This document shows, piece by piece, positions 2,771 through 16,801 of a stretch of DNA of 64,000 nt. Below the pieces are notes generated by a model. The model ran no database searches, was not told the origin of the DNA, and worked only from the letters and a program-made list of their open reading frames with translations. The stretch's first letter is position 1; each line of letters starts with the position of its first letter. Position numbers and translations under genes: made by a program. Source of the stretch: Bacilli bacterium. Its GTDB lineage: Bacteria; Bacillota_I; Bacilli_A; ML615J-28; CAG-313. Location of the stretch: contig JAFVWY010000018.1 of NCBI GenBank assembly GCA_017501465.1, forward strand, positions 146,748 to 210,747, given 5' to 3'.

Positions 2771-3799
2771 ATGCCATATATAATTTCAGCATCAGAAAAG
2801 ACTAGAAAATCTGCATCAGAAACTGAAACAAAAGCATTATTGTATTTAATGAATTTTGACGAACATAGTAGTCAAATACACTACTATATTATTGATGTAA
2901 TAAATGACCTCTCTGGACATTCTGTAGATATGATTAATTCTTGGGATGTTCAATCGAAAGGAAATAAATCTCCTTCCCCCAAAACTATTGGAAAGGAAAT
3001 AGTTACGCTTTTTAAAAATTTTATGTCTGAATTCAATTTTATGAAATCAATATTATTTCTAGGTGGTGTATCATCTACTTTTAGAATTGACGAGAGCATT
3101 AATATATTTGGAATTGAAAATGTTAAGTCATCATCAAAGACCAAAATGATTGAAGGATTAAAAGAAGAAGCTGCAGAAAAGGAATATATTGAAGGAGAGT
3201 GGATCACTGATGAAAATATTGATATTTTTTTAGACCAATTAACTTTTGTTATTGATGATAAAGGTAAAACTGAATATGTCAGAGGAATTATTAGCCTTAA
3301 AACTTCCGTTATAGTTAATGATGAAATTTTAATAAGCATTTTCGATTCCATCAGGGATGTGCAGTCAGCTAAAAAGAATAATATGAATGTTGAAGGTAAA
3401 AGTTTGAATTCACTAACTGATATCTTAAGATTTAAAAGACACATGACATCAGATGAAATTCGAATTATGGCATTAAATCGTATAGTAAACACAAATATAA
3501 TGGATAAAGGAATGCCGATTTGCCTTAATGAAGTAATTGGACATTTGAGTAAAAATGATTTGAAAGATGTTGTTGAAGACTGTAAATTGAATATTTCTAA
3601 AGCACTGTTCGACAAAAATAATAGCGATAATTTTTGGGATTTGTTTGGTGAAATATATACACTTATTACTGATAATCCACAGGGAACAATAGAGAAAATA
3701 TTTATTTTGATTAATAAAAACAAAATAAATTGTGTTCATCATTTAGATGAAATGGCTATAAAATATTTAGTTGCGCTAATAATGGAGGTTATTATATGA
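2771..3799 (+). CDS. lmuA: Lamassu-like effector, PD-(D/E)xK (Cap4/DUF4297-like) nuclease
   Basis: AAGGAGG RBS; D..ND...WDVQSK nuclease-like motif; ATGA overlap with an SMC-like ATPase. Confidence 0.7.
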   Translation: MPYIISASEKTRKSASETETKALLYLMNFDEHSSQIHYYIIDVINDLSGHSVDMINSWDVQSKGNKSPSPKTIGKEIVTLFKNFMSEFNFMKSILFLGGVSSTFRIDESINIFGIENVKSSSKTKMIEGLKEEAAEKEYIEGEWITDENIDIFLDQLTFVIDDKGKTEYVRGIISLKTSVIVNDEILISIFDSIRDVQSAKKNNMNVEGKSLNSLTDILRFKRHMTSDEIRIMALNRIVNTNIMDKGMPICLNEVIGHLSKNDLKDVVEDCKLNISKALFDKNNSDNFWDLFGEIYTLITDNPQGTIEKIFILINKNKINCVHHLDEMAIKYLVALIMEVII

Positions 3800-5403
3800 T
3801 TATAAATAAGATTGCTATTGGTAATTCCCAAGAAGCATTTATTGAGGATAGATTTACAAGTGGACTAAACATAATTTCAAGTGATGATAATAACAAAGGT
3901 AAAACAATTGTTATGCAAGCAATATTTTATGCTATTGGTAATGAACCTGTATTTCCTTCATCATTTGATTATAAAGAATATTACTATATACTAGATTTCA
4001 CTTTGGATAATGGAAATAACATTTTGTGTTGTAGAAAAAATGATTCATATGTTGTAAAAGTAAATGAAAGTTTAAATTTATTTGATTCAACAGCAGAATT
4101 GAAAAGATTTTTTTCTAGAAATGGATTTGAATTTCCATATATTATAAAAGATAATATTAAAAAAATGGTAGATCCAGTTTTGTTATATGAGTTGTTCTTT
4201 GTTGGTCAAGACAAGAAAAACACTTCTGATATTATTCATAAAGGTTATTATAAAAAAGAAGATTTCATAAATATGATTTATTCAATTGCAGGAATAGAAT
4301 TAGTCCAAACATTAAACGTTGACGAAGAACTTACTAAAAAAAGAATAGATGAACTTGAAGAAGAAAAAAAACAATTAAAAAAACAAAATAAAATTTTATC
4401 TTCTAAAAGTACAACAATGAATACAGTTTCAACCTATAGTGATATAACATCTTTGGAATCTAAATTTTCTGAAATAAAAAAAATAAAAGATACTATTGTA
4501 GAATGTTCTAAAGAAAGAAATAGATTAATTAATAGACTACTTAAAAATGAAAATGCATTAAAAGAGTTAAGATCGTTAAATCAATTTATAGAATCAGGAA
4601 CTTTGCGATGTTCGGATTGTGGCAGTGATAAGATTTTTTATTACACAGAGGATAAGTCATATAATTTTGATATAACAACAACAGACATGAGAACTCAAAT
4701 TCTTAATTCAATTGAAGAAAAAATAGAAGCATATAAAGATGAAATAGATAAGTTAAATAATGTAATTGAGCAGTCTCAAACTTTGTTAAAGGAATTATTA
4801 AAAGATCGTGATATATCAATTGAATCAATATTACTATATAAACCAGATTTTATTAATTATGTTGATGCAGATAATAGGCTTGTAGAAATAAAAAAAGAAA
4901 TAAAAACATTAAAAGATTCATTAATAGTAGGAAAAACAAAGTCTAAGTATGTTCAAGAACAGAGAAATAAACTTATTGAAGATATAGAGCAAGCAATGGA
5001 CTCTATTTACCATATAATTGAATCTAATGGCCCTAATACATTTAGTATATTTACAAAAAAAGAAGAAACATATTCGGGATGCGAAGGGACAGAGTTTTAT
5101 TTATCCAAACTATATGCGTTGCAAAAGATATTAAATCATACATATCCAATTGTAATGGATTATTTTAGAGATGGAGAGTTGTCAACACAAAAGGAAAGTG
5201 TAGTGATTGAAGAGTTCAAAAAACTATCAAATCAGGTTATTTTTTCTGCCACTTTAAAAGAACAAGAACTAGGAAAATATGATAATATTGAAGATGTAAA
5301 TCATATAGACTATATATCTAATATTCCGTTTCATTTATTACAAGAATCTTTTGTACAATTATTTGATGAATTGTTGAAAGAATTAAATATAAAGATAAAA
5401 TAA
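3796..5403 (+). CDS. lmuB: Short SMC/Rad50-like ABC ATPase (Lamassu LmuB-like)
   Basis: Walker A SDDNNKGKT, coiled coils, central CSDC zinc hook, YSGCE signature, Walker B IVMDYFRD. Confidence 0.8.
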   Translation: MIINKIAIGNSQEAFIEDRFTSGLNIISSDDNNKGKTIVMQAIFYAIGNEPVFPSSFDYKEYYYILDFTLDNGNNILCCRKNDSYVVKVNESLNLFDSTAELKRFFSRNGFEFPYIIKDNIKKMVDPVLLYELFFVGQDKKNTSDIIHKGYYKKEDFINMIYSIAGIELVQTLNVDEELTKKRIDELEEEKKQLKKQNKILSSKSTTMNTVSTYSDITSLESKFSEIKKIKDTIVECSKERNRLINRLLKNENALKELRSLNQFIESGTLRCSDCGSDKIFYYTEDKSYNFDITTTDMRTQILNSIEEKIEAYKDEIDKLNNVIEQSQTLLKELLKDRDISIESILLYKPDFINYVDADNRLVEIKKEIKTLKDSLIVGKTKSKYVQEQRNKLIEDIEQAMDSIYHIIESNGPNTFSIFTKKEETYSGCEGTEFYLSKLYALQKILNHTYPIVMDYFRDGELSTQKESVVIEEFKKLSNQVIFSATLKEQELGKYDNIEDVNHIDYISNIPFHLLQESFVQLFDELLKELNIKIK

Positions 5404-5434
5404 AATGATAGGAAATAAAAAAAGGAGCATTTAA

Positions 5435-5857
5435 ATGAACGAAGACAAAAAACAGTATTTGCAGATGATACAAGAACCAATAAGTAGGATGTCGTCAATT
5501 TCGGTAACTATTAAAGGCTTTACGGCAACAATTATAACAGGATTAACAGTAATATCATTTTCTGAAATTAAAACAATTATACTAATACTGGCTTTTATGC
5601 CAATATTAGCTTTCACAATTATGGATATGTATTATTTGAGCATGGAAAGAAAATTTAGATACTTATATAATTGTGTATTAGATGAAAAACATGACATTAA
5701 TTTCTCATTAAAATTAATGAATGAACCATCAGATATAATAAGCGCACGAGCTAGATTTTTAGATTGCCTGAAGTCTCCGAGTATATATTTATTCTATCCA
5801 TTGGTTTATGTAGTTTATATTATAACAATTATATTAAAAATAGGAGGAGTTTTATAA
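5435..5857 (+). CDS. Small 2-3 TM membrane protein, putative TIR-associated effector
   Basis: YLQMIQEPISRMSS..IKGF, two hydrophobic helices, DMYYLSMERKFR and a C-terminal helix; abuts the TIR gene. Confidence 0.7.
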   Translation: MNEDKKQYLQMIQEPISRMSSISVTIKGFTATIITGLTVISFSEIKTIILILAFMPILAFTIMDMYYLSMERKFRYLYNCVLDEKHDINFSLKLMNEPSDIISARARFLDCLKSPSIYLFYPLVYVVYIITIILKIGGVL

Positions 5858-6469
5858 ATGGCACATAAGACTTTTATTTCATATAAATATAGCGAATCAC
5901 AAACTTTAAGAGATAATATAATTAATAAATTAGGGGATGATGCTACTTATTATAGAGGTGAAACTTCTGATTCGCCTGATTTAAGTGATTTTAAAACCGA
6001 AACAATAAAGAAAAAATTAACTGATATGATGTATGATACAAGTGTAACAATTGTAATATTGTCTCCCAATATGAGAGAGAGTAAATGGATTGATTGGGAA
6101 ATAGAGTATTCCTTAAAAGATATTACAAGAAAAGATAGAACATCGCATAATAATGGAGTTGTTGCAGTAATTATGAAAGTTGATGGTTCATACTCTTGGT
6201 TTAAAAAATCGGGGGTTAATTGCCATAGAACCGGCATTGTAAAATATGAAATGGATAAAATTTGTAAAATTATTTCAGCAAATCACTTTAATTCTAATCC
6301 TCCAAAATGGCATTGCAATACATGTAAGACATACGATTGGTTGAATGGATCTTATATTACTTTTGTAGAAGAAGATGATTTTTTAGAAGAACCATTAAAA
6401 TATATTGACAATGCATATGATAAAAGTGAAAATGATGGAAAAGGATATAAATTGAATAAAGAAAGATAA
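5858..6469 (+). CDS. thsB: ThsB-like TIR domain protein (DUF1863/MTH538 type)
   Basis: KTFISY, TSVTIVILSP and SKWIDWEIEYSL with the catalytic Glu. Confidence 0.85.
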   Translation: MAHKTFISYKYSESQTLRDNIINKLGDDATYYRGETSDSPDLSDFKTETIKKKLTDMMYDTSVTIVILSPNMRESKWIDWEIEYSLKDITRKDRTSHNNGVVAVIMKVDGSYSWFKKSGVNCHRTGIVKYEMDKICKIISANHFNSNPPKWHCNTCKTYDWLNGSYITFVEEDDFLEEPLKYIDNAYDKSENDGKGYKLNKER

Positions 6470-6471
6470 TT

Positions 6472-6720
6472 ATGAACAAACTATTTAAATATATATTAGA
6501 AAACTATAATGATGGAATTGAAAAAGTAGATTCATCTACTGAACTATATAAAGTATTAACAAAAACACTTCCTAATAAAATAGGATATACACTAGGAATA
6601 AGTGATCTTATAGTTAAAGGATCTATGGGATAAGGTAATAAAACACAGTATCCTTGGATTGCTATAATGGATAAGAACATTACACAATCAACTCAATATG
6701 GATTAAAAAAACAATTATAT
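6472..6720 (+). pseudogene. McrB N-terminal-like (DUF3578) domain fragment
   Basis: VKGSMG*GNKTQYPWIAIMDKNITQSTQYG matches the family pattern KGS.GQGN...PWIA..D..IT.S.Q.G; in-frame TAA at 6631; truncated. Confidence 0.75.
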
Positions 6721-6835
6721 GAGCTATATTATTAAAACAATTAATTATAAAATTTACGTATTCTAAATTATTAAGATGAAATCTTTGTTTAAATATGTTA
6801 TAATACTTGTATATTCATTAAAAAAGGTAATAATT

Positions 6836-8113
6836 ATGAAATCATATACAATAAAAGAATTATCAAAACTAAGTGGCTTAAATAGAAAAGAAATAAGAAA
6901 GCATTTAATTGCGCAAACATTAAAGAATGAAGTGCGTTCAGGAAAATACTTTGTAGAAGAAGAAGATTTAAATGTGTGGTTAAAGAACCCGACTGTTCTA
7001 GATGAAAATAATTTAGACTCTATTTTCAATGAAGAACAAGAAGAGGTACTAGAAGAAAAGGGTATTTATGAAAAAGATATTAGTAAAAGTAAAAAAAATA
7101 TTGATTGGAAAAATGTTCCTTTAAACACTATTAAATTTGCTGACTTTTTCTGTGGAGCTGGAGGAATTTCTTTAGGTTTATTGATGGCTGGATATGAGCC
7201 TGTTTTAGGAGTTGATATTAATGAGTCAGCTATTGAAACATATAGAAAAAATTTAGGTTCAAGATTCGAAAAATTAACTAATCTTTCTGCAAAAGATATT
7301 ACAAAAAAAGAAGTTAAAAGCGAAATCATTCAAAAGTTAAAAACTGAAAATGTTAAACTTATTTGTGGAGGATTCCCGTGTCAAGGGTTTAGCTTATCAG
7401 GTAGTAGAGTAATATCTGACCCTAGAAATACTTTATATAAAGATATGCTAGAGATTGTTGATGAAGTTAGACCAGAATTTATTGTAATGGAAAATGTTGT
7501 AGGAATTACAACTATATATAAAGGTAAAGTACTAAACAAAATAATTCGAGATTATAGGAGAATAGGATATGAAATCTCGTGGCAAGAAATAAATGCTGCA
7601 GATTTTGAAGTTGGACAATCAAGAAAAAGAATTATTTTTATAGGTAATTGTGTAGATAAAAGAAACATATTCCCTAAAAAATTAATAGATGATCCTGCAA
7701 ATTATATTACTTGTGGTGACGTAATTGAAAAATATAAAACTATGAATGAAGATAAATCTATTAATCATATTTTTTCAAGACATTCTGATACTATGAAACA
7801 AAGACTTTTAGCAGTTCCTGTTGGTAAAAGTTTATATTCTAACTATGGAGATTCTTGGAAAAAGTGTTCTAAGGATAAACCTTCATGTACAATAAAAGGT
7901 AATCATGGGGCAACTAATATTCACTATGAACTTCCTAGAGTAATTACACCTAGGGAAATGGCAGCTTTGCAATCTTTCCCAGATGATTATATTTTTTATG
8001 GATCTAAACATGATATTCTTGTTCAAATAGGAAATGCTGTAGCACCATACGTAGCAAGATCAATAGGACTTGCTCTAAAAGAAGAAATATTAAAAGAAAT
8101 AAATGAGGATTAA
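6836..8113 (+). CDS. C5-cytosine DNA methyltransferase with N-terminal excisionase-like HTH
   Basis: FFCGAGG, GGFPCQGFS, ENV, QSRKR, IGNAV; N-terminus YTIKELSK..LNRKEIRK..GKYFV; start 6836 follows TGTTATAAT and an AAGGT RBS. Confidence 0.92.
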   Translation: MKSYTIKELSKLSGLNRKEIRKHLIAQTLKNEVRSGKYFVEEEDLNVWLKNPTVLDENNLDSIFNEEQEEVLEEKGIYEKDISKSKKNIDWKNVPLNTIKFADFFCGAGGISLGLLMAGYEPVLGVDINESAIETYRKNLGSRFEKLTNLSAKDITKKEVKSEIIQKLKTENVKLICGGFPCQGFSLSGSRVISDPRNTLYKDMLEIVDEVRPEFIVMENVVGITTIYKGKVLNKIIRDYRRIGYEISWQEINAADFEVGQSRKRIIFIGNCVDKRNIFPKKLIDDPANYITCGDVIEKYKTMNEDKSINHIFSRHSDTMKQRLLAVPVGKSLYSNYGDSWKKCSKDKPSCTIKGNHGATNIHYELPRVITPREMAALQSFPDDYIFYGSKHDILVQIGNAVAPYVARSIGLALKEEILKEINED

Positions 8114-10019
8114 TATGTCTAAGTGGAAATGGAATTTTAGTGTAAAAAATGAGCCTGATTATAAATTAGTAGATTCATTTAGTGATTCAAAGTTCAATAT
8201 TAATTGTGTTGCCTCTTTTACTAGGGAAATTATTCAAAATTCATTGGATGCTAAGAATAAAGAAATTAATTCTCCCGTAGAAGTTAAGTTTGAAATTAAA
8301 AAAATAAAATCTAGTAAAATTCCAGGAATAGCTGATTTATTATTTGTGCTTGAGAAATCATTATTGAATTTAACTCATCCTGAAACAATAAACAAATTTA
8401 AAAGAGCAATAGAAAACTTAAAGAAAGATGAAATAGAAGTTTTAAAAATTTCTGACTATAATACTCTTGGAATGACTTTGAAAAGTTGGGAAGCTTTATT
8501 ATTTAAAGAAGGCGTTTCTGACAAACAAAATGATTCATCAGCTGGAAGACATGGTGTAGGGAAAAAAGCGTCATTTCTAATGAGTTTATGTAATACTGTA
8601 TATTATGCTACTAAAAATATTAATGATGAAATTTTTTTTAGTGGGAAATCTGTATTAGTCGATTGGAAAAAAGATAATAATGATAGTGAGTGGTATTCAA
8701 GAACAGGATGGTTTGGTGATAAAACTGACAATAGTATTAGATTTTTAAAAAATGAAGAAATAAATGATATTGATAATTTCTTTATTAGAAAAGATTCATA
8801 TGGTTCAGATGTAATGGTTTTATCTCCAAGAGTTATTGATGAAGAATATGATCTTGAAAGATTGATAATTAATTCGGTTTTAGAAAATTTCTATGTTGGT
8901 TTATGCGAAAATAAATTGGTTGTGAAAGTTAATAAAATAGAAATCAATTCAAAAAATGTGAATAATGTTTTAGAAAATTATTATATTGACAAATTTACAA
9001 GACAAGGAATTATTGGTTCTAATATTACTTATGGTTTGCTGAGAGATTTTAAGAATGCGTATATAGAAAATTATAAAACTCCTGTAGTTATCGATATACC
9101 AAAATTAAATTCTCATTTAGATTTATACATAACATTAAATACAGAAAAAGCTAAGAAATACTATTCTTTCTATCGTGATCATGGTATGAAAATAAAAGAT
9201 GAAAGATTTAGTGATGCAGATAAGACATTTGCAGCAATAGTTGTGGCAAGAGGAGATGGCATTAATGAATTTTTACTTAATTTAGAAAATGCTGCTCATG
9301 ATGATTTTATAGTTGATGAAAATTTAGATAAAGATAAAAAGAAAGAATTTAATGATATGCTATCATATATTAAAGATATGATTGGCTATAATATTAAAAA
9401 AATAACAAAATTGGATTTAAGTGATGAAATTGAGTTAAATGAACTTAACGATATAATTGACAACCCTGGTGAAATAAGTAGAAAAGTTTCTAAAAAAACA
9501 ACAGCTAAGAAAAGTATAAAACCAGAAAGTAAAATTGTAATTCAAACAAAATCAAATAAACAAGTTGAAGAAGAATGGAATGAAAGAATTAAACCACTAG
9601 ATCCTATTCCTGCAACACCAATAAAACCGATAGGGCCTGACACTCCTCCTCGTCCATTACCTTATTCTAAAGAATTAGAAGAAGAAAACAAAGAAGAAAA
9701 GAAGTTGCTTAAAGAGGTCGCTTTCGAAAAAATGTTAGTAACATTACATGATTGTTATTATATGCAATTTTCATGTTCATATAATTTGAAACGAGTATCA
9801 ATTCAAGTTACTGCTAAAAATGTTGATGATGCAGAAAATGATGTTGGTTATATGTTAAGCGAAATTCTATGGAACAATGAAATTTATCCTAATAAGGGTA
9901 ATAATTATATTGAACTAGGTGATTTAGCTGCATATGAAGATATGAAATTATTTATTAAATTAAAAGAATCTTCTAGATATAAATTATTCGCAAGAATTGT
10001 AGGTAAAACATATGATTAA
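8103..10019 (+). CDS. GHKL (MORC/paraMORC-like) ATPase
   Basis: N box REIIQNSLDA, G1 KISDYNTLG, G2 SAGRHGVGK; Pro-rich linker near the C-terminus; probable start 8115. Confidence 0.75.
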   Translation: MRINMSKWKWNFSVKNEPDYKLVDSFSDSKFNINCVASFTREIIQNSLDAKNKEINSPVEVKFEIKKIKSSKIPGIADLLFVLEKSLLNLTHPETINKFKRAIENLKKDEIEVLKISDYNTLGMTLKSWEALLFKEGVSDKQNDSSAGRHGVGKKASFLMSLCNTVYYATKNINDEIFFSGKSVLVDWKKDNNDSEWYSRTGWFGDKTDNSIRFLKNEEINDIDNFFIRKDSYGSDVMVLSPRVIDEEYDLERLIINSVLENFYVGLCENKLVVKVNKIEINSKNVNNVLENYYIDKFTRQGIIGSNITYGLLRDFKNAYIENYKTPVVIDIPKLNSHLDLYITLNTEKAKKYYSFYRDHGMKIKDERFSDADKTFAAIVVARGDGINEFLLNLENAAHDDFIVDENLDKDKKKEFNDMLSYIKDMIGYNIKKITKLDLSDEIELNELNDIIDNPGEISRKVSKKTTAKKSIKPESKIVIQTKSNKQVEEEWNERIKPLDPIPATPIKPIGPDTPPRPLPYSKELEEENKEEKKLLKEVAFEKMLVTLHDCYYMQFSCSYNLKRVSIQVTAKNVDDAENDVGYMLSEILWNNEIYPNKGNNYIELGDLAAYEDMKLFIKLKESSRYKLFARIVGKTYD

Positions 10020-10899
10020 GACAAGTGATTTTCCGTACCCGGTTTTAAGAAGTGATAAAAGTGTTTTAACAAGTTATAAGAGAGAATATTATTTGAATAT
10101 AAACTGTGATGATCCAATAAATAATGAAAATGAATATATTTTTAAAACTCAACTTTTAACAAATTCTGAAACTATCAATAATATGCTTTCAGAAGGTAAG
10201 GCGTCATCTTATATTATTTATCAAACCAAAATTTTAAAAAGAATTTATAAAATCGATAATTCAGATTTGACTTATGAATTGAAGATACCATATTCATATT
10301 TTCAATCAATGGATGAAGTTAAAATTTCTGCTATTATTACAGCAAATGAAGATTTTGAGTTGTTATATAATGATGAAATTGATGATGGTTATAATTTAGA
10401 TGTCCCATATTTTATTACTAAAAAAGATATTGTAGCTATTTCAAATGAGATAATTTTTGATTTTAATAAAACTGGTAAAACAATTATTAAATTGATTAAG
10501 CGTAATGATTTAACATCTGGATTTCAAGTGAACATTAATCAGGATGAATACATTTTAATTGAAGTGAACCCTGAATTTAAAAAAGCTTATGATGTTGTTG
10601 CTGTTAAACAGTCTGAATTAAAAATTCCAGCACTAACCATGATACATTCAAGTTTAATTCATATGGCAATGATTAATGTTTTTATTAGATTAATTAAAGA
10701 AGATTATAAACAACACATAAACAAAAGATGGTTTAAAGTGATAAGAAGTACTTTAAATACAAAAGATGTAATTTTAGAAGATAGTTTATCTGATTTAAAT
10801 GAAGATTTCGATATTAATAAAGTATACGAATTAGTTGATAAATTTTTAAATCATTTCTTTGACAAAGCAATATCTAAGTGTAGTGAGGCGTTAAAATGA
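10012..10899 (+). CDS. Hypothetical protein with N-terminal FPYPVL motif
   Basis: Overlaps both neighbours; beta-rich N-half and helical C-half. Confidence 0.7.
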   Translation: MIKTSDFPYPVLRSDKSVLTSYKREYYLNINCDDPINNENEYIFKTQLLTNSETINNMLSEGKASSYIIYQTKILKRIYKIDNSDLTYELKIPYSYFQSMDEVKISAIITANEDFELLYNDEIDDGYNLDVPYFITKKDIVAISNEIIFDFNKTGKTIIKLIKRNDLTSGFQVNINQDEYILIEVNPEFKKAYDVVAVKQSELKIPALTMIHSSLIHMAMINVFIRLIKEDYKQHINKRWFKVIRSTLNTKDVILEDSLSDLNEDFDINKVYELVDKFLNHFFDKAISKCSEALK

Positions 10900-11720
10900 A
10901 AATAGAATTAAGAAAAATAAATACATCTGAATATAATAATTTATTAAATAACATTAATGATAATTTAGAATTTTATATGAATTATGAAAACAATGATATT
11001 CATATTTATGATGATGTTCGTACACTTGAAGAAATTAGCGAACCAATTGTTAATGGTGAAAAAATAGAAATAGAAATTTCAGAGGCAGATCTAAAATTTT
11101 TATCAACAATTTTAAAATGGAAAGAAAATTATTTGGTTGGCAAATTACTTCATAAAAAATTACAGCAATATGAATATAAATTCTATGGTGTTTTTTATGA
11201 ACGTGGTTTTTGGGCATATATTTGTCATCATCCTATGTTTAGAAAGTATATAAAAAATAGATATTTTTCAGGTGTGGTTGAAGAGTCAGAAGAAGATGAT
11301 GATAAAAATGAAGATGTTGTGAAAAAAATTGAAAGATTTTTCTTATGTAAAGGAACTGCAAGTAGAACAGGTGTAATGTTTAATTGGATGCTTACTGAAA
11401 GTTTATATGATAAATATAAAATGTATGATTTATCAGAAGTAGGATTTTCATTTATTGATAGTGTAAAAGCAATTTATGAAAGAAGTTTTCATATGAATAA
11501 AAGAATAGTGAAAGCATTTGTTCAAGGTATTATTAATAACAACAGATCTGCTGCATTCAAAGATACTAAAACTAATTATCGTTCTATTATTCCAACTCAT
11601 ATTAGCAATATTGCAGCATTAAATTCATTAGATAGTTATGATAGTTATAATGACTTAGTCCAAAAAATAACATTAGAGCAAAAACATATCATTGCTTTGT
11701 ATGAAAAGGAAAGAAGGTAA
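10896..11720 (+). CDS. Hypothetical protein, DUF6339-like
   Basis: ERGFWAYICH...YIKNRY resembles the (D/E)R.WAYL.H...Y...R(W/Y) motif as I recall it; ATGA coupling. Confidence 0.55.
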   Translation: MKIELRKINTSEYNNLLNNINDNLEFYMNYENNDIHIYDDVRTLEEISEPIVNGEKIEIEISEADLKFLSTILKWKENYLVGKLLHKKLQQYEYKFYGVFYERGFWAYICHHPMFRKYIKNRYFSGVVEESEEDDDKNEDVVKKIERFFLCKGTASRTGVMFNWMLTESLYDKYKMYDLSEVGFSFIDSVKAIYERSFHMNKRIVKAFVQGIINNNRSAAFKDTKTNYRSIIPTHISNIAALNSLDSYDSYNDLVQKITLEQKHIIALYEKERR

Positions 11721-11723
11721 AAT

Positions 11724-12461
11724 ATGACCTTTGAACAATGGTTAAAAGAAATATATTTGAAATCAAATGGTAAACCTCTTTCAACTTCATCTGTAGAAAA
11801 ATATAAACGTGGTCTATCAACGACTTCAATGGAAATGTTAAAAAAAGGAATAATAAGAAAACCATTAGAAGAAATGGAATTGATGGAATTAGACTTGGCC
11901 ATATCAATTATAATGAATACTAAATCTTTTATAGATAAAGATATAAAAGGTGATAGAATGTATAGCAATTCTTTAAAAAGATATCGCTGTTATGTTTATC
12001 ATAATGCTGATTTTGGTAAGAAAGAAGTAGAAGAAATTGAAAACCTACAAAAAGATATAAAATTAACTGAAACTGAAAAAGAAACACTAATTAAAGCAAG
12101 AAAGGGACAAGGTTTATTTAGAGATAAGCTAAAAGAAAAATATAACAATAGATGTATCATTACTGATATTAATATTTCGCAGGTATTAATAGCGAGTCAC
12201 ATTAAACCATGGGCTGTTTCAAATAATGAAGAAAGATTATCAGTTGATAATGGATTACTTCTTTCTGCGACTTTTGATAGATTATTTGATAGTGGATTAA
12301 TTACGTTTAAGAAAGATGGTACCATATTAATATCTAATTTAATTAGTAAAGATAATATAGAAAAACTACATTTAAAAGAAGGTCAAGTATATGATATTAA
12401 ATATAATCCTGATATGGATGAATATTTAACTTATCATAACGATGTTATTTTTGTAAGATAG
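11724..12461 (+). CDS. HNH endonuclease (HNH_2 type) with helical N-terminal domain
   Basis: RKGQGLFR, CIIT, LIASHIKPW, DNGLLL, FDRLFDSGLITF. Confidence 0.9.
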   Translation: MTFEQWLKEIYLKSNGKPLSTSSVEKYKRGLSTTSMEMLKKGIIRKPLEEMELMELDLAISIIMNTKSFIDKDIKGDRMYSNSLKRYRCYVYHNADFGKKEVEEIENLQKDIKLTETEKETLIKARKGQGLFRDKLKEKYNNRCIITDINISQVLIASHIKPWAVSNNEERLSVDNGLLLSATFDRLFDSGLITFKKDGTILISNLISKDNIEKLHLKEGQVYDIKYNPDMDEYLTYHNDVIFVR

Positions 12462-12488
12462 TATAAATAATATAAAAAGGAGAAAAAA

Positions 12489-12914
12489 ATGGCAAAATTA
12501 GTATATGGAAAGAGAAATAAATTAAATTTTCGAGATTATGGGGAATTTTATAAAGCATATGGCTTTTTATGTAATTCTTCAAAACATAGTTTAAAAGTAA
12601 TGCTGGAGTATAATGCAAGAAGCGGTGCTTGGGGAAATGAAGGGCGAATATTATTATATAAACATAGTACTACACATTACACACCTCTTCCTCAAGCCTT
12701 TTATAATAAGCTAACAGCAGGAAGAGGAAGAATAATTAATAGAATTAATTGTAATGAATATGTTTTAGAATTGTATCAACATTATGGCTTTTCTGTTTCT
12801 AATACAATTAATGGAATAACTCCATCGAATTTGACACCTCCATCATTACAAGATGCATTAACTTATGTTCCAGTGGCATATCAAAATGATTTTTTGCAAG
12901 GATATAATATGTAG
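12489..12914 (+). CDS. Hypothetical protein, last gene of the operon
   Basis: AAAGGAG RBS; SGAWGNEGRI and RINCNEY motifs; followed by a terminator. Confidence 0.7.
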   Translation: MAKLVYGKRNKLNFRDYGEFYKAYGFLCNSSKHSLKVMLEYNARSGAWGNEGRILLYKHSTTHYTPLPQAFYNKLTAGRGRIINRINCNEYVLELYQHYGFSVSNTINGITPSNLTPPSLQDALTYVPVAYQNDFLQGYNM

Positions 12915-12939
12915 CTATTATAAAACCTAGATGGGTCAA

Positions 12940-12978
12940 TAAAATCTATTAGTGAATCAGACTAATAGATTTTTTTTA
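12940..12978 (+). terminator. Intrinsic terminator
   Basis: aaaatctattagt-gaatcag-actaatagatttt followed by a T tract. Confidence 0.75.
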
Positions 12979-13077
12979 ATTCTTTTTATTAATGTTGAGT
13001 AATTTTGTATAATTCTTTATTTTTTTATCGAAATATGTTATAATTATGTAAAGTTTTTATGAAAGGAGAATATCACT

Positions 13078-15582
13078 ATGAATACATATATAAGTTTATT
13101 TAGTAGTGCTGGGGTTGGTTGCTATGGTTTTAAAATGGAAAATTTTGAATGTATTGCAACAAATGAATTAATAGAGCGTAGATTAAATGTTCAAAAACAT
13201 AATAAGAAATGCAAATATGAATCAGGTTATATATGCGGTGATATTACTCAAGACGAAATAAAAGAATCACTTTACAAAGAAATTAAATTTTGGAAAACAA
13301 ATGAAAATTTAAAAAGAGTAGATGTTGTTATTGCTACTCCTCCTTGTCAAGGAATGTCAGTAGCAAATCATAAAAAGAATGATAAAGAGATTATAAGAAA
13401 TTCATTAGTTGTTGAGTCAATAAAAATAATTAAAGAAATTAATCCTAAATTTTTTATATTTGAAAATGTTCCTGCCTTTATGAAAACAATATGTACCGAT
13501 ATAGATGGGCAAGATAAATTAATTTCTGAAGCAATTGAAAATAATTTGGGAGAACTATATTCATATAGTGCTAAAGTAATAAATTTTAAGAACTTTGGAG
13601 CATGTTCTAGTAGATCAAGAACTGTTGTGATAGGTGTGTCAAAAGAATTGGTAGATGACATTGGGCCTGCCGAATTATATCCTATTTATAGAGAAGAAAC
13701 AACATTACGCGAAACAATAGGGCATTTAAAAAGTTTAACAATAATGGGTGAAATTGATGAAAATGATATATACCATGCTTTTAGAGAATACCCAGAACGT
13801 ATGAGAGCGTGGATAACAGATTTAAACGAGGGTGAATCTGCTTTTGATAATGTCGATGATAGTAAAAAACCACATCAAATTGTTGGTGGTAAAATGGTAA
13901 TTAATCAAAGGAAAAATGCTGATAAGTATACTAGAACTTATTGGGATAAAGTTGGACCATGTGTTCATACAAGAAACGATCAATTAGCAAGTCAAAATAC
14001 AATTCATCCATCAGATGATCGCGTGTTTAGTATAAGAGAATTAATGTTGATGATGACTGTTCCATATGAATTTAAATGGAGCGAGTATGATTTAGAATAT
14101 TTGAATAATCTTTCATTGAGTAAAAAGAAACAATACTTAAAAAAAGAAGAAATCAAAATTAGACAATCATTAGGTGAAGCCGTTCCAACGATTATATTTA
14201 AGGAGATTGCAGCAAACATTAAAATCAAATTAAATAAACCTAAAGTAAAAAAAAACACAATTAATCAATTGATAGAAAAATATCAGGATTTAAATACTGA
14301 AGATTTAATAGATTTTATAAAGAATAATCCACTAGACCTATCAATATCGACTCTAAGCAAAATAGCAGAAATGGCTAATACAAAAAGAACTGATAATGGT
14401 GCATTTTATACTAACAAAGAGTTAATCACGAAGATGATGGAAACACTTAAACTATCAGATAAAGAAGAGATTAATGTTTTAGAACCATCTGTTGGAGTTG
14501 GGAACTTTATACCATTTATTATTGATAAGTTTAATGATAAAAAATTAAATATAGATGTTATTGATGTAGATGAAAATAGTGTGAAAATTGCCAAGGTCTT
14601 AATGGATAAATATAACATTCCTAAAAATGTAGAGATTAATTATATTGTTGATGATTTCTTAACACACAAATTTGATAAACATTATGATTATATAATTGGA
14701 AATCCACCGTTTGTTAAAATAAAAGATGCAAAATTGTTAAAGCAATATAGAAAACATTGTAAAAATTCAGATGCTACAAATATATGCTCATACTTTTTAG
14801 ACAAAACTGTAGAATTAGCTGATTCAATTGCTATAGTATTTCCAAAGTTTATTTTAAATACACCAGAGTATATTAGAACTAGAGACTATTTAAAAAAATT
14901 GAATGTAGAATGTATTATTGATTTTGGTGAAAAGGGTTTTCCTGGGGTATTAATTGAAACAATTGCTCTTTTTATTAATCTAAATACTAAACCTAATAAT
15001 ACAAGAATAATTTCATTAACTAATAATATAGATATAATACAAAAGCAAAATTATATAATGGATTTTAAATTACCATACTGGATAATTTATAGAAACGAAT
15101 ATTTTGATATGGTATGGAAAAAATTAGAATTCAATGTATTTGATGTTTTTAGAGATAGACAAATCACAAATTCATTAATGAATGATAAAAAAGGTTATAG
15201 AGTAATAAAATCAAGAAATATTCAAAAAGATGGATCAATCGTTGATATACCTAACTATGACTCATATGTTGAGAAAGATATTGCAATAAATTTAGCGATA
15301 TATGATTATTTAGAACGAGATGATGTTTACTTGACACCGAATATGACTTATTATCCTAGAGTTATCAAAAAGCCAAGAGGTGTATTAGTTAATGGGTCAG
15401 TTGCAATATTAATTCCAAAAACTAACATTGAATTAACTAAAGAACAATGTGATTATTTCTCATCAGAAGAGTATTGGAACTTTTATGGAATAGCTCGTAA
15501 TTATCAAACTAGATCCCTTAATGTCGATTCATGTTCAGTATATTTCTATGGATTATTAAAACAAGGAGAAGAAAATGATTAA
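13078..15582 (+). CDS. Fused m5C + m6A DNA methyltransferase (M.HpyAV-like, Type IIS)
   Basis: N-half LFSSAGVG, TPPCQGMS, ENV, SSRSR, SLGEAVP; C-half GAFYT, EPSVGVGNF, IGNPPF. Confidence 0.9.
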   Translation: MNTYISLFSSAGVGCYGFKMENFECIATNELIERRLNVQKHNKKCKYESGYICGDITQDEIKESLYKEIKFWKTNENLKRVDVVIATPPCQGMSVANHKKNDKEIIRNSLVVESIKIIKEINPKFFIFENVPAFMKTICTDIDGQDKLISEAIENNLGELYSYSAKVINFKNFGACSSRSRTVVIGVSKELVDDIGPAELYPIYREETTLRETIGHLKSLTIMGEIDENDIYHAFREYPERMRAWITDLNEGESAFDNVDDSKKPHQIVGGKMVINQRKNADKYTRTYWDKVGPCVHTRNDQLASQNTIHPSDDRVFSIRELMLMMTVPYEFKWSEYDLEYLNNLSLSKKKQYLKKEEIKIRQSLGEAVPTIIFKEIAANIKIKLNKPKVKKNTINQLIEKYQDLNTEDLIDFIKNNPLDLSISTLSKIAEMANTKRTDNGAFYTNKELITKMMETLKLSDKEEINVLEPSVGVGNFIPFIIDKFNDKKLNIDVIDVDENSVKIAKVLMDKYNIPKNVEINYIVDDFLTHKFDKHYDYIIGNPPFVKIKDAKLLKQYRKHCKNSDATNICSYFLDKTVELADSIAIVFPKFILNTPEYIRTRDYLKKLNVECIIDFGEKGFPGVLIETIALFINLNTKPNNTRIISLTNNIDIIQKQNYIMDFKLPYWIIYRNEYFDMVWKKLEFNVFDVFRDRQITNSLMNDKKGYRVIKSRNIQKDGSIVDIPNYDSYVEKDIAINLAIYDYLERDDVYLTPNMTYYPRVIKKPRGVLVNGSVAILIPKTNIELTKEQCDYFSSEEYWNFYGIARNYQTRSLNVDSCSVYFYGLLKQGEEND

Positions 15583-16801
15583 TCAATCTCAAGTCGAACA
15601 ATTTATAAACTCGAAAAATTATGATATTAGAATAAGTGGAAATGCAAGATGGATCGATCAAAAATGTACTCCTGATGTTTTATGGTCAATTTCAGATTTT
15701 ATTTTAAATTATGTTGATAATGTAAATGAACAATTTACTGTTGCGGATATATGGACAAGTGATTATGCAAAATTAACAATTGCTGAGACTTATTCTAAAC
15801 CTGGAATTGATGAAAAAACTGCTGAGAATGAATATGATAAAGTTTTTTCTCAACCAATAAACTTATTATGCTATGCTGGGATATTAGAAGATATTAGCCT
15901 TACATCACGCCATCTATACAAAGTTATAAATAGAGAAATTTTAGAATATATTGCAAGAAATGATATTTTTTCCCTTAGGTTTTTACAATTGTACATTGAA
16001 AAAGTATTAAAAGACAGTGGTATTTACCATTATTTTCAAAGTTTTTTTGATAATCAAGATAATACACATTATAATCAGTTAAAAAACGTATTTATAGAAT
16101 TTTACCATATGTATACTCCTGTAAAAAAAGATCTTGAGCCCAAACGAATTTTTACAAAAGTAGTAAATCCATTGGCATTTAAATATTTAAAAAAAGGTTC
16201 TGAAAGAGGCAGGATGTCAAAAGACTTAATTAATAGGTCTGATATGATGTATAATAGAGATAATTTTAGAGATGTATATTTAGGTAAGCCTAAAGGCGTA
16301 ACTAGACAAGAATGGTTACAAAGTCATCCAGATATTGATATGAGAACAGGTTATTTTGAACAAATGATGAATAAAGCTAAAAAAGTTATTAAAGATAGCA
16401 CGATTAATTTTAGAAATAATGTTTCAGAATTAACTCAATTTAGTATAAATCATGATGATTATAATCCTGCAACACAGTTACATCATATTTTTCCTAAAAA
16501 TGAGTTTCCCGAAATTATGCACTATTTGGAAAATATGATTGCAATTACTCCAAACCAACATTATGGATTTGCACATCCAAACAATAATACAAATATAATT
16601 GATGTTGGAGCACAGAAAGAATTATTATTGGTGAAAGTTGAAAGTATACAATTAAATCTATCTAATAATGCAGAAGAAGAAATTTATGAATTTGATAATT
16701 TGCTATATGTTCTTTGTGTTGGATTAGAAGATTCGAATATAATGAAGATTAAAAACGGTGATTATATCGACGTTATACAAGCCATAAATGCTCATTATTA
16801 A
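15575..16801 (+). CDS. Type IIS restriction endonuclease with C-terminal HNH (HpyAV/Hin4II-like)
   Basis: ARWIDQKCTPDVL near the N-terminus; HHIFP..ENMIAITPNQH..AH HNH site; coupled to the dual methyltransferase. Confidence 0.75.
   Translation: MINQSQVEQFINSKNYDIRISGNARWIDQKCTPDVLWSISDFILNYVDNVNEQFTVADIWTSDYAKLTIAETYSKPGIDEKTAENEYDKVFSQPINLLCYAGILEDISLTSRHLYKVINREILEYIARNDIFSLRFLQLYIEKVLKDSGIYHYFQSFFDNQDNTHYNQLKNVFIEFYHMYTPVKKDLEPKRIFTKVVNPLAFKYLKKGSERGRMSKDLINRSDMMYNRDNFRDVYLGKPKGVTRQEWLQSHPDIDMRTGYFEQMMNKAKKVIKDSTINFRNNVSELTQFSINHDDYNPATQLHHIFPKNEFPEIMHYLENMIAITPNQHYGFAHPNNNTNIIDVGAQKELLLVKVESIQLNLSNNAEEEIYEFDNLLYVLCVGLEDSNIMKIKNGDYIDVIQAINAHY

Follow-up and report, generated by a model that had tools for sequence, protein, structure and literature searches.

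Two described entities lie closest to the subject of this report, a run of six genes at positions 6,836 to 12,914 of a 64,000-nucleotide stretch of DNA (hereafter the window) from a Bacilli bacterium of the CAG-313 lineage (assembly GCA_017501465.1, contig JAFVWY010000018.1, forward-strand positions 146,748 to 210,747). The first is paraMORC2, belonging to the methylase-linked paraMORC ATPases published in 2008 (Iyer, Abhiman and Aravind 2008, PMC2292703); in the sections of that paper that concern it, it is described as having a strongly conserved ExxxH motif downstream of the ATPase domain, as associated with cytosine methylases and Vsr, and as occurring mainly among cyanobacteria and Gram-positives. 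The second is PDC-M33 of PADLOC-DB v2.0.0 (models PDLC04582-04586), which names three proteins, A, B and C; in the part of the literature that introduces them, PDCs are presented as 'guilt-by-embedding' candidates, most of them unvalidated. The six genes of the window encode, in order, a 5-methylcytosine (m5C) DNA methyltransferase (M), a likely GHKL-type ATPase (A), two further proteins (B and C), an HNH endonuclease and a 141-residue protein.

With PDC-M33 the locus shares the A-B-C gene order, a full-length match of A and a match of C; the link to a methyltransferase, a conserved gene of about 72 residues upstream of A and the fusions described below were worked out in the present analysis. 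With paraMORC2, A shares the ExxxH motif (E395, H399), while the module as a whole shares a sporadic, laterally mobile spread that includes Gram-positive bacteria, and a neighbourhood of cytosine methylases and Vsr. The partners stressed in the corresponding sections of the 2008 paper are superfamily 2 (SF2) helicases and restriction endonuclease-fold nucleases, neither of which is part of the conserved block here; those sections describe no B or C proteins, and A is likened to paraMORC2 by description. An earlier reading of this DNA from its letters alone (the original prediction) had presented the operon as undescribed, which does not stand in view of the PADLOC entry and of the paraMORC work.

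M-A-B-C is a real, well-conserved system, catalogued as a candidate (PDC-M33) and foreshadowed as paraMORC2. It is a recurring conserved module, but the six genes are not one conserved unit. We regard it as probable that the locus is a composite of a divergent, restriction-modification (R-M)-like M-A-B-C system of the PDC-M33, paraMORC2-like type, an independent HNH gene and a rare open reading frame (ORF). The observations behind this composite reading are the gene content and synteny, the family links, the conserved motifs, the HNH gene's separate mobility, and the settings in defence islands, plasmids and a prophage.

Three further groups of systems invite comparison. The MORC plus Z1-helicase R-M systems have in common with this locus a methylase-linked GHKL ATPase in defence islands. 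The six proteins of the window contain no helicase or Z1 domain, as had been stated at the outset, whereas Z1 is readily detected in Paenibacillus neighbours of the module (4.6e-78); moreover, the window A lies below the HATPase_c_3 cut-off and did not align to MORC-like proteins, for which the references were of low diversity. Tiamat and other GHL-ATPase defence proteins (bioRxiv 10.64898/2026.09.30.754977) share, according to the available portion of that preprint, a GHKL-type ATPase, an anti-phage context and methyltransferases often nearby. Tiamat is described there as a single protein with a C-terminal PD-(D/E)xK nuclease and with neighbouring methylases that are mostly adenine-specific, whereas A has no such domain and would need B and C; the PADLOC models for Tiamat find no match in the window. 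Finally, BREX, DISARM, MADS and Hma resemble the module in having a methyltransferase as the presumed self mark for a multi-protein, ATP-using machine whose inactivation of the target is unclear or nuclease-poor. The components shared with these systems are limited to the methylase class, and the module of the window is smaller, with three proteins and a methylase; the matches of M to the PADLOC DruM and DrmMII models are those of a generic m5C methylase.

Conservation and spread of the M-A-B-C module

A scan of one genome per species with a profile of A recovered 110 relatives, of which the best 80 were kept, corresponding to 78 distinct loci. These come from Bacillota, Bacteroidota, Chloroflexota, Pseudomonadota, Nitrososphaeria-type ammonia-oxidising archaea and others. 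A B-family gene is present in 63 of them and a C-family gene, placed after B, in 66; intact A, B and C follow one another in this order on one strand in 55, with median gaps of -14 and -4 nt (the rule used for start codons may overstate the overlaps). An m5C methylase is found in 58 of the 78: in 44 it lies no more than 500 bp from the block, and in 34 it is directly upstream in the same orientation. The original prediction had grouped an m5C methyltransferase with a GHKL ATPase and with proteins of no assignable function; synteny and PADLOC bear out the linkage of M to A and to two such proteins, and place it in a defence island. The synteny that it called for thus extends to M, A, B and C, which recur together, but not to the HNH gene and the 141-residue ORF; likewise, the named candidate covers three of the six genes.

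The 20 loci that lack an m5C methylase comprise five on short or cut contigs, two with a truncated A, two in which a D12 N6-adenine methylase stands directly behind C, three with large unassigned neighbours, and eight of a variant with a long C (448-551 residues). In this variant a DndB-like gene follows in seven loci, with a GIY-YIG gene as well in four. In seven archaeal and Chloroflexota loci (L026, L029, L035, L039, L043, L063 and L078), C has about 541 residues and combines DUF6339 with an extension of about 290 residues, for which a phmmer search of the PDB gave no match; a DndB-like protein of 411-448 residues comes next, preceded in four loci by a GIY-YIG protein of 122-129 residues, and there is no m5C methylase nearby.

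A conserved gene of about 72 residues lies directly upstream of A in 36 of the 78 loci (alignment A5; e.g. L003:7789-8004), at position -1 in 33. It belongs to no Pfam family and is absent from the window and from its nearest relative, L002. That it might correspond to the N-terminal helix-turn-helix (HTH) part of M was considered and rejected, since it has no Pfam HTH match and does not align to that part.

At a finer phyletic scale the module is sporadic: A occurs in 13 of the 398 other genomes of a phylum-wide sample, and in none of the seven from the window's own family.

Repair genes recur across the A loci, with Vsr genes forming a cluster of 15 and HhH-GPD/NUDIX_4 (MutY-type) genes a cluster of seven, and this is expected beside active m5C writers. 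The same recurrence could be taken to mean that A-B-C is a MutL-like, methylation-coupled machine for DNA repair or maintenance, working with the m5C methylase, Vsr and T:G glycosylases on deamination damage or hemimethylated sites. The combination of GHKL and S5 domains is the architecture of MutL, the relevant part of the 2008 paper raises recruitment to repair for some versions (PMC2292703), and A, B and C include no nuclease that was found. Nevertheless, Vsr and the glycosylases go with m5C methylases generally and are present in a minority of the loci; the spread just described is sporadic; the module rides on conjugative plasmids beside Abi genes, by a prophage integrase and inside R-M clusters; and it is also paired with N6-adenine methylases, where deamination repair would be irrelevant. 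We therefore hold a repair function to be improbable.

The ATPase component A

The full-length relationship of A to PDC-M33A is close (PDLC04582, 1e-77, residues 8-628 on profile positions 3-619 of 627; 8.6e-80 in the genome search). It begins with a GHKL-type domain and a middle domain with the ExxxH motif, after which a low-complexity linker leads to a small C-terminal domain. The N-box (ExxxNxxD), a DxGxG-like motif (DxxxxG) and a glycine-rich ATP lid are present in order, and the residues E42, N46 and D49 of the N-box, D118, G123, G148, G151, G153 and K154 are invariant in all 36 aligned relatives. Outside the ATP site R358, E395 and H399 are equally invariant (36/36), and N396, A398 and D400 are conserved in at least 90%. 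As for the start of the protein, the alternative start codon (Table 1) has the better ribosome-binding site (GAGG), and the Atlas record likewise begins at residue 5.

HATPase_c_3 is the sole recurrent Pfam family among the relatives of A, at sub-threshold level in 9 of 36 (best 4e-4), and a weak match links A to an NCBIfam sacsin-type ATP-binding model (E 0.0034). For profile-profile comparison, the first 260 residues of A were set by hhalign against reference alignments built from PF13589 loci. An HtpG-like alignment gave a probability of 71% (E 3.7e-5) over 169 columns with the ATP-binding motifs in register; a mixed set gave 84%, over the N-box only; and a MutL set gave 10%. Judged by its motifs A is likely a GHKL ATPase, so that this half of the designation originally given to it, a GHKL(MORC) ATPase, is retained, while its link to MORC specifically is unproven.

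The Atlas entries for A and B are clusters of 'hypothetical protein' only. A natural fusion in the representative library (P0290, 749 residues) joins A (1-444) to a full B (476-742), with the linker and C-terminal domain of A replaced, which argues that A and B work together physically. In a 0.7-Mb genome of the same class (G053), a full-length homologue of A (1.4e-88) contains one in-frame TGA, and this suggests that the range of the module includes a lineage in which TGA is read as a residue.

Components B and C

No family in the Pfam, PADLOC, NCBIfam or PHROG libraries accommodates the window B. A hidden Markov model grown from it finds the gene directly after A in 63 of the 78 loci, and the PADLOC M33B model (PDLC04583, 289 positions) matches the gene after A in all five related genomes tested (1.6e-105 to 7.9e-17); since the two models find the same genes, B is a divergent M33B. 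Its conserved features are a near-invariant N-terminal P8-x-P10-x-L12 motif and W240. The predicted structure (pLDDT 90.2, pTM 0.64) has a beta-sandwich domain followed by a helical one. Foldseek against the PDB gave no row at E <=0.001, a search that barely probed the C-terminal helical domain, and a wide VIA search returned generic Ig/FN3-like beta-sandwich rows only (best Z 9.5 over 81 residues).

C carries DUF6339 (PF19866, 2e-08, 34.7 bits against a cut-off of 23.2) and matches one of the PDC-M33C models (PDLC04586, 2.3e-06 over residues 5-262); the other two, PDLC04584 and PDLC04585, do not match it. It is predicted to be mostly helical (pLDDT 92.8, pTM 0.89) and had no match in structure searches by Foldseek against the PDB (best E 0.66), by wide VIA search (best Z 6.4) or in BFVD (best E 0.77). 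W106 and W164 are conserved. Neither B nor C has invariant acidic or histidine residues.

The methyltransferase M and its N-terminal extension

M combines a PF00145 domain (2.6e-66 over residues 119-435; TIGR00675, 1.3e-57) with the catalytic motifs of a type II-like m5C methyltransferase, its translation showing FCGAGG (FxGxGG), PCQ, ENV, QSRKR (QxRxR) and GNAV. The whole 1.56-Mb genome of the window has two PF00145 matches, both within this island.

Ahead of the catalytic domain is an extension of about 100 residues, which the original prediction had read as an autoregulatory HTH. The HTH is a possible one, the HTH_17 match being below its cut-off (E 0.0095); autoregulation is plausible because the extension also matches the methylases of the 12 nearest related loci and because in a phage copy of the module a Cro/C1 HTH is fused to the m5C methylase. 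HTH-bearing methylases are the model for such autoregulation, and by analogy with them this putative DNA-binding extension probably tunes transcription of M or of the operon.

The HNH endonuclease and the 141-residue ORF

The HNH protein has an HNH_2 domain (8.9e-12), and its residues 108-243 align with residues 174-306 of VcaM4I (PDB 6YEX; 1.1e-30, or 1.3e-39 with a profile). VcaM4I is an EVE-HNH enzyme dependent on 5-methylcytosine or 5-hydroxymethylcytosine (5mC/5hmC), and the alanine variant of its catalytic H224 is inactive (PMC7897488); H159 of the window protein aligns with this histidine and is invariant in 29 of 29 relatives. For the N-terminal region of about 105 residues, the one match was to Phage_int_SAM_5 (E 0.041), and a PDB profile search matched the HNH part only.

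As a whole the 245-residue protein has relatives in 2693 clusters, in size classes of about 244 and about 376-385 residues, which fit the published classes of wH-HNH (224-283 residues) and PUA-wH-HNH (375-496 residues) enzymes (PMC11037411). A weak EVE match (E 0.013) was obtained for one of the long relatives. The idea that the long relatives are fusions of the HNH protein with the 141-residue ORF was rejected, as there is no similarity and the extra part is N-terminal. Enzymes of the wH-HNH type are reported near Eco57I-like methylases (PMC11037411), and the window likewise has an Eco57I-type methylase just downstream. By analogy with these enzymes, the HNH protein is probably modification-dependent in the manner of a type IV enzyme, with its N-terminal domain recognising the modified base.

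The distribution of the HNH gene differs from that of the module. Neither it nor the 141-residue ORF occurs in any of the 78 A loci. Three loci recovered from metagenomes are closest to the window. In one (L083, with B 96% identical), M-A-B-C is followed by a type I methylase and an S subunit; in another (L085, 92-94%), B-C is followed by an HTH gene and another m5C methylase; both lack the HNH gene. The third (L084, 82%) has the order M-A-B-C-HNH with an HNH protein 73% identical to that of the window. Conversely, two genomes of the same family have the HNH gene without A-B-C: in G229 (84% identity) it lies beside an EcoRI-like adenine methylase, with an m5C methylase one gene away, and in G390 (81%) its neighbour is an AAA_15/AAA_21 ATPase. 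Of the 398 other genomes in the phylum sample, 19 have HNH and 13 have A, with no overlap, the window's genome alone having both.

These distributions bear on the proposal, made originally, that all six genes form one ATP-dependent restriction complex in which a GHKL dimer, clamped on unmethylated DNA, licenses the HNH nuclease. In its favour, the HNH gene begins 3 nt after C on the same strand with no terminator between them, a single hairpin with a U run follows the last gene, L084 has the genes in the same order, and the contig of a relative at about 94% identity (X13 record 6) runs from C into the HNH gene. Moreover, A, B and C have no recognisable nuclease, and the slot behind C is elsewhere taken by GIY-YIG (four archaeal loci), an HD-domain protein, AIPR, GmrSD_N or EcoRII-C, so that a swappable effector slot is conceivable. 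Against it, HNH is missing at all 78 A loci and at two of the three loci nearest to the window, none of the 398 genomes has both A and HNH, and HNH homologues of 81-84% identity are found beside unrelated genes. The whole HNH protein, its N-terminal domain included, also belongs to a far larger family (2693 clusters, against 223 for A and 37 for the window B in a word-indexed search), and its HNH domain is of a type used by self-contained modification-dependent enzymes. A single six-gene complex is thus quite unlikely, and HNH as the licensed effector finds no backing in the wider set of loci. The 3-nt spacing, the order in L084 and the bridging contig make a functional tie between HNH and A-B-C possible in this sub-lineage, and we give a small chance to its having been recruited there as an effector.

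Another reading would make HNH the classical type II partner of M, with A-B-C as an unrelated cassette inserted between them. It is true that the window, L084 and G229 each have an m5C methylase close to the HNH gene, and that related HNH models carry the label of type II restriction enzymes in PADLOC. Yet an m5C methylase accompanies A-B-C without HNH in 58 of the 78 loci, as it does in L083 (91-96% identity); the G229 methylase is 34% identical to M, with the EcoRI-like adenine methylase in between; the G390 HNH gene has no methylase among the neighbours examined; and the HNH domain is closest to that of a modification-dependent enzyme. This pairing is very improbable. On its sequence and distribution, the HNH protein is instead an independent, separately mobile VcaM4I-type endonuclease occupying a variable slot behind C, with predicted co-transcription.

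The 141-residue ORF belongs to no family in Pfam, PADLOC, NCBIfam or PHROG; in the phylum sample, relatives of it turned up in two of the 399 other genomes, in both cases next to other genes. It is a rare passenger.

Organization of the locus and predicted transcription

All six genes are present as originally described, tightly coupled on one strand, with no overlap or gap exceeding 27 nt (Table 1). The junctions are overlaps of 11, 8 and 4 nt along M-A-B-C, followed by gaps of 3 nt (C/HNH) and 27 nt (HNH/141-residue ORF). G+C content is about 25% throughout the region, and no compositional break was seen.

Table 1. Predicted genes and signals of the six-gene locus and of its flanks, in window coordinates
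Feature	Position	Strand	Basis
M, m5C DNA methyltransferase	6836-8113 (first ATG of open frame 6776)	+	PF00145 match
A, 638-residue GHKL-type ATPase (likely)	8103-10019 (possible start 8115)	+	PDC-M33A match and motifs
B, 295-residue protein, divergent PDC-M33B	10012-10899	+	HMM (hidden Markov model) grown from window B
C, 274-residue DUF6339 protein, PDC-M33C	10896-11720	+	PF19866, PDLC04586
HNH endonuclease, 245 residues, VcaM4I-type HNH domain	11724-12461	+	HNH_2, PDB 6YEX
141-residue ORF, strong ribosome-binding site of its own	12489-12914	+	ORF call
Promoter-like site: ATGAAA, 17 nt, TG-extended TATAAT	6776-6804	+	Consensus match only
Terminator-like 13-bp A/U-rich hairpin and U run	12941-12981 (hairpin 12941-12973)	+	Folding
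LmuB-like ATPase, PDC-M50A and ThsB-type TIR protein	3796-6469	+	PADLOC PDC-M22B 2.8e-193; PDC-M50A 5.4e-28; ThsB-type 5.3e-82, Pfam ThsB_TIR 9.9e-13
Fused m5C and Eco57I/N6-adenine methyltransferase (834 residues) and type II restriction enzyme, overlapping	13078-16801	+	PADLOC MTase_II 5.7e-275; restriction enzyme 1.1e-121

The flanking signals claimed for the operon, a promoter near 6795 and a terminator near 12940, are each present as candidates. The promoter-like site upstream of M has its TATAAT at 6799-6804 with a TG in front and scores 10 of 12 matches, but the region shows no enrichment of such sites (47 against 57.1 +/- 7.3 in shuffles). The hairpin behind the last gene folds at -15.2 kcal/mol (z -2.54), with equally good folds in 3 of 200 shuffles, but a G+C-based terminator scan of the region returned no sites and so does not list it. 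In a run labelled as a metatranscriptome and represented by contigs only (X19), pieces 90-99% similar extend across M, A, B and C up to 11642 and none falls over 11836-13100; contigs of this kind cannot show transcription, and the uncovered part proves nothing.

Directly upstream of M, at 6472-6732 on the plus strand, lies an MrcB_N-type stub (PF12102, 1.8e-14) with an in-frame TAA at codon 54 and an early end. MrcB_N is the N-terminal DNA-binding domain of McrB-like 5mC-directed restriction enzymes, and a decayed 5mC-dependent enzyme adjoining a 5mC writer looks like a relic of genetic conflict.

Defence-island setting

In the window the six genes stand between other defence genes, upstream and downstream (Table 1), and comparable settings are found for A-B-C elsewhere. 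On a conjugative Lactococcus lactis plasmid its neighbours are AbiGI/AbiGII, on a Ligilactobacillus salivarius megaplasmid it is flanked by type I HsdS/HsdM and by an MmeI-like methylase, and in a temperate Clostridium innocuum phage the module adjoins the integrase; at other A loci it is next to Cas9, GmrSD, AIPR or MORC-Z1 systems. In Paenibacillus (L018-L021 and L015), a full classical MORC-type system made up of a 572-600-residue m5C methylase, an HATPase_c_3 protein and a Z1 protein is immediately downstream of M-A-B-C. That the two GHKL systems stand side by side in these loci shows that they are distinct. Just upstream of M-A-B-C-HNH in L084 (L084:1840-3825) is a 661-residue HATPase_c_3 protein with a weak C-terminal TIR match, which resembles the architecture of paraMORC4 (GHKL-TIR) in Iyer et al. 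2008.

Mechanistic interpretation

Under the composite reading, M would write the m5C self mark, and A would probably dimerise on ATP in the manner of other GHKL clamps. A complex of A, B and C could then, by ATP-driven clamping, engage and inactivate DNA without that mark. Within A, ExxxH(D) is the leading candidate for the site of the chemistry. Because invariant polar residues outside the ATP site are confined to A, it may be the catalytic engine, with B and C acting as adaptor or DNA-reading subunits. We infer that the three proteins form a complex and that self is told from non-self by methylation, and likewise any DNA cleavage by A-B-C and the modification dependence of the HNH protein.

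A number of results weigh against this interpretation, beginning with the spacing of C and HNH and the contig that bridges them, given above. The GHKL assignment of A is below every curated threshold: the window protein reaches E 0.025 and 15 bits with HATPase_c_3, against a cut-off of 25 bits, no Pfam, NCBIfam or PHROG family is above its cut-off, and a PDB profile search with A returned chance rows only (E >=0.55). The hhalign probabilities for MORC-like sets were 0.65% (four Paenibacillus HATPase_c_3 proteins) and 0.25% (two others), which, given the very low diversity of these references, is not evidence against a relationship. The S5-like domain of A is proposed from the literature description only. 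The window B does not match the M33B model itself, even at E 10. In none of A, B and C was a nuclease fold or motif recognised, so that a restriction-like outcome is proposed without an identified effector. The type IV reading of HNH is by analogy, as its N-terminal domain has no assigned fold. Lastly, no experiment on PDC-M33 was found in the literature, supplements being outside the search, and PDC-M33, DUF6339 and PF19866 are named in no paper text that was found, though supplementary tables may name PDC-M33.

A more radical version can be put forward. A-B-C could be a methylation-gated clamp that works without any nuclease, a prokaryotic counterpart of eukaryotic MORC silencing that entraps, compacts or topologically disables unmarked DNA rather than cutting it; or else the ExxxH(D) site could be a new nuclease centre, with B and C as new methylation-reading folds. 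We consider this unlikely. If true, it would in either form amount to a restriction-modification logic of a fourth style, spread over thousands of lineages, among them archaea, plasmids and phages.

Implications

The locus illustrates how independent systems can be stacked within what looks like one compact operon of a defence island. The B family alone, as gathered with a B profile, comprises 3578 clusters at 50% identity (E <=0.001, among 1.84 billion representatives), yet it is missing from Pfam and NCBIfam and drew no informative match from the structure libraries that were searched. The M-A-B-C module ties a DNA methyltransferase to a GHKL ATPase of a lineage that has been proposed as the source of the eukaryotic MORCs. 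Copies on plasmids of Lactococcus lactis and Ligilactobacillus salivarius make the question of its action directly testable in hosts that are culturable and harmless. Establishing the action of the module on unmethylated DNA would test the paraMORC prediction of 2008, and could reveal a new way of disabling foreign DNA.

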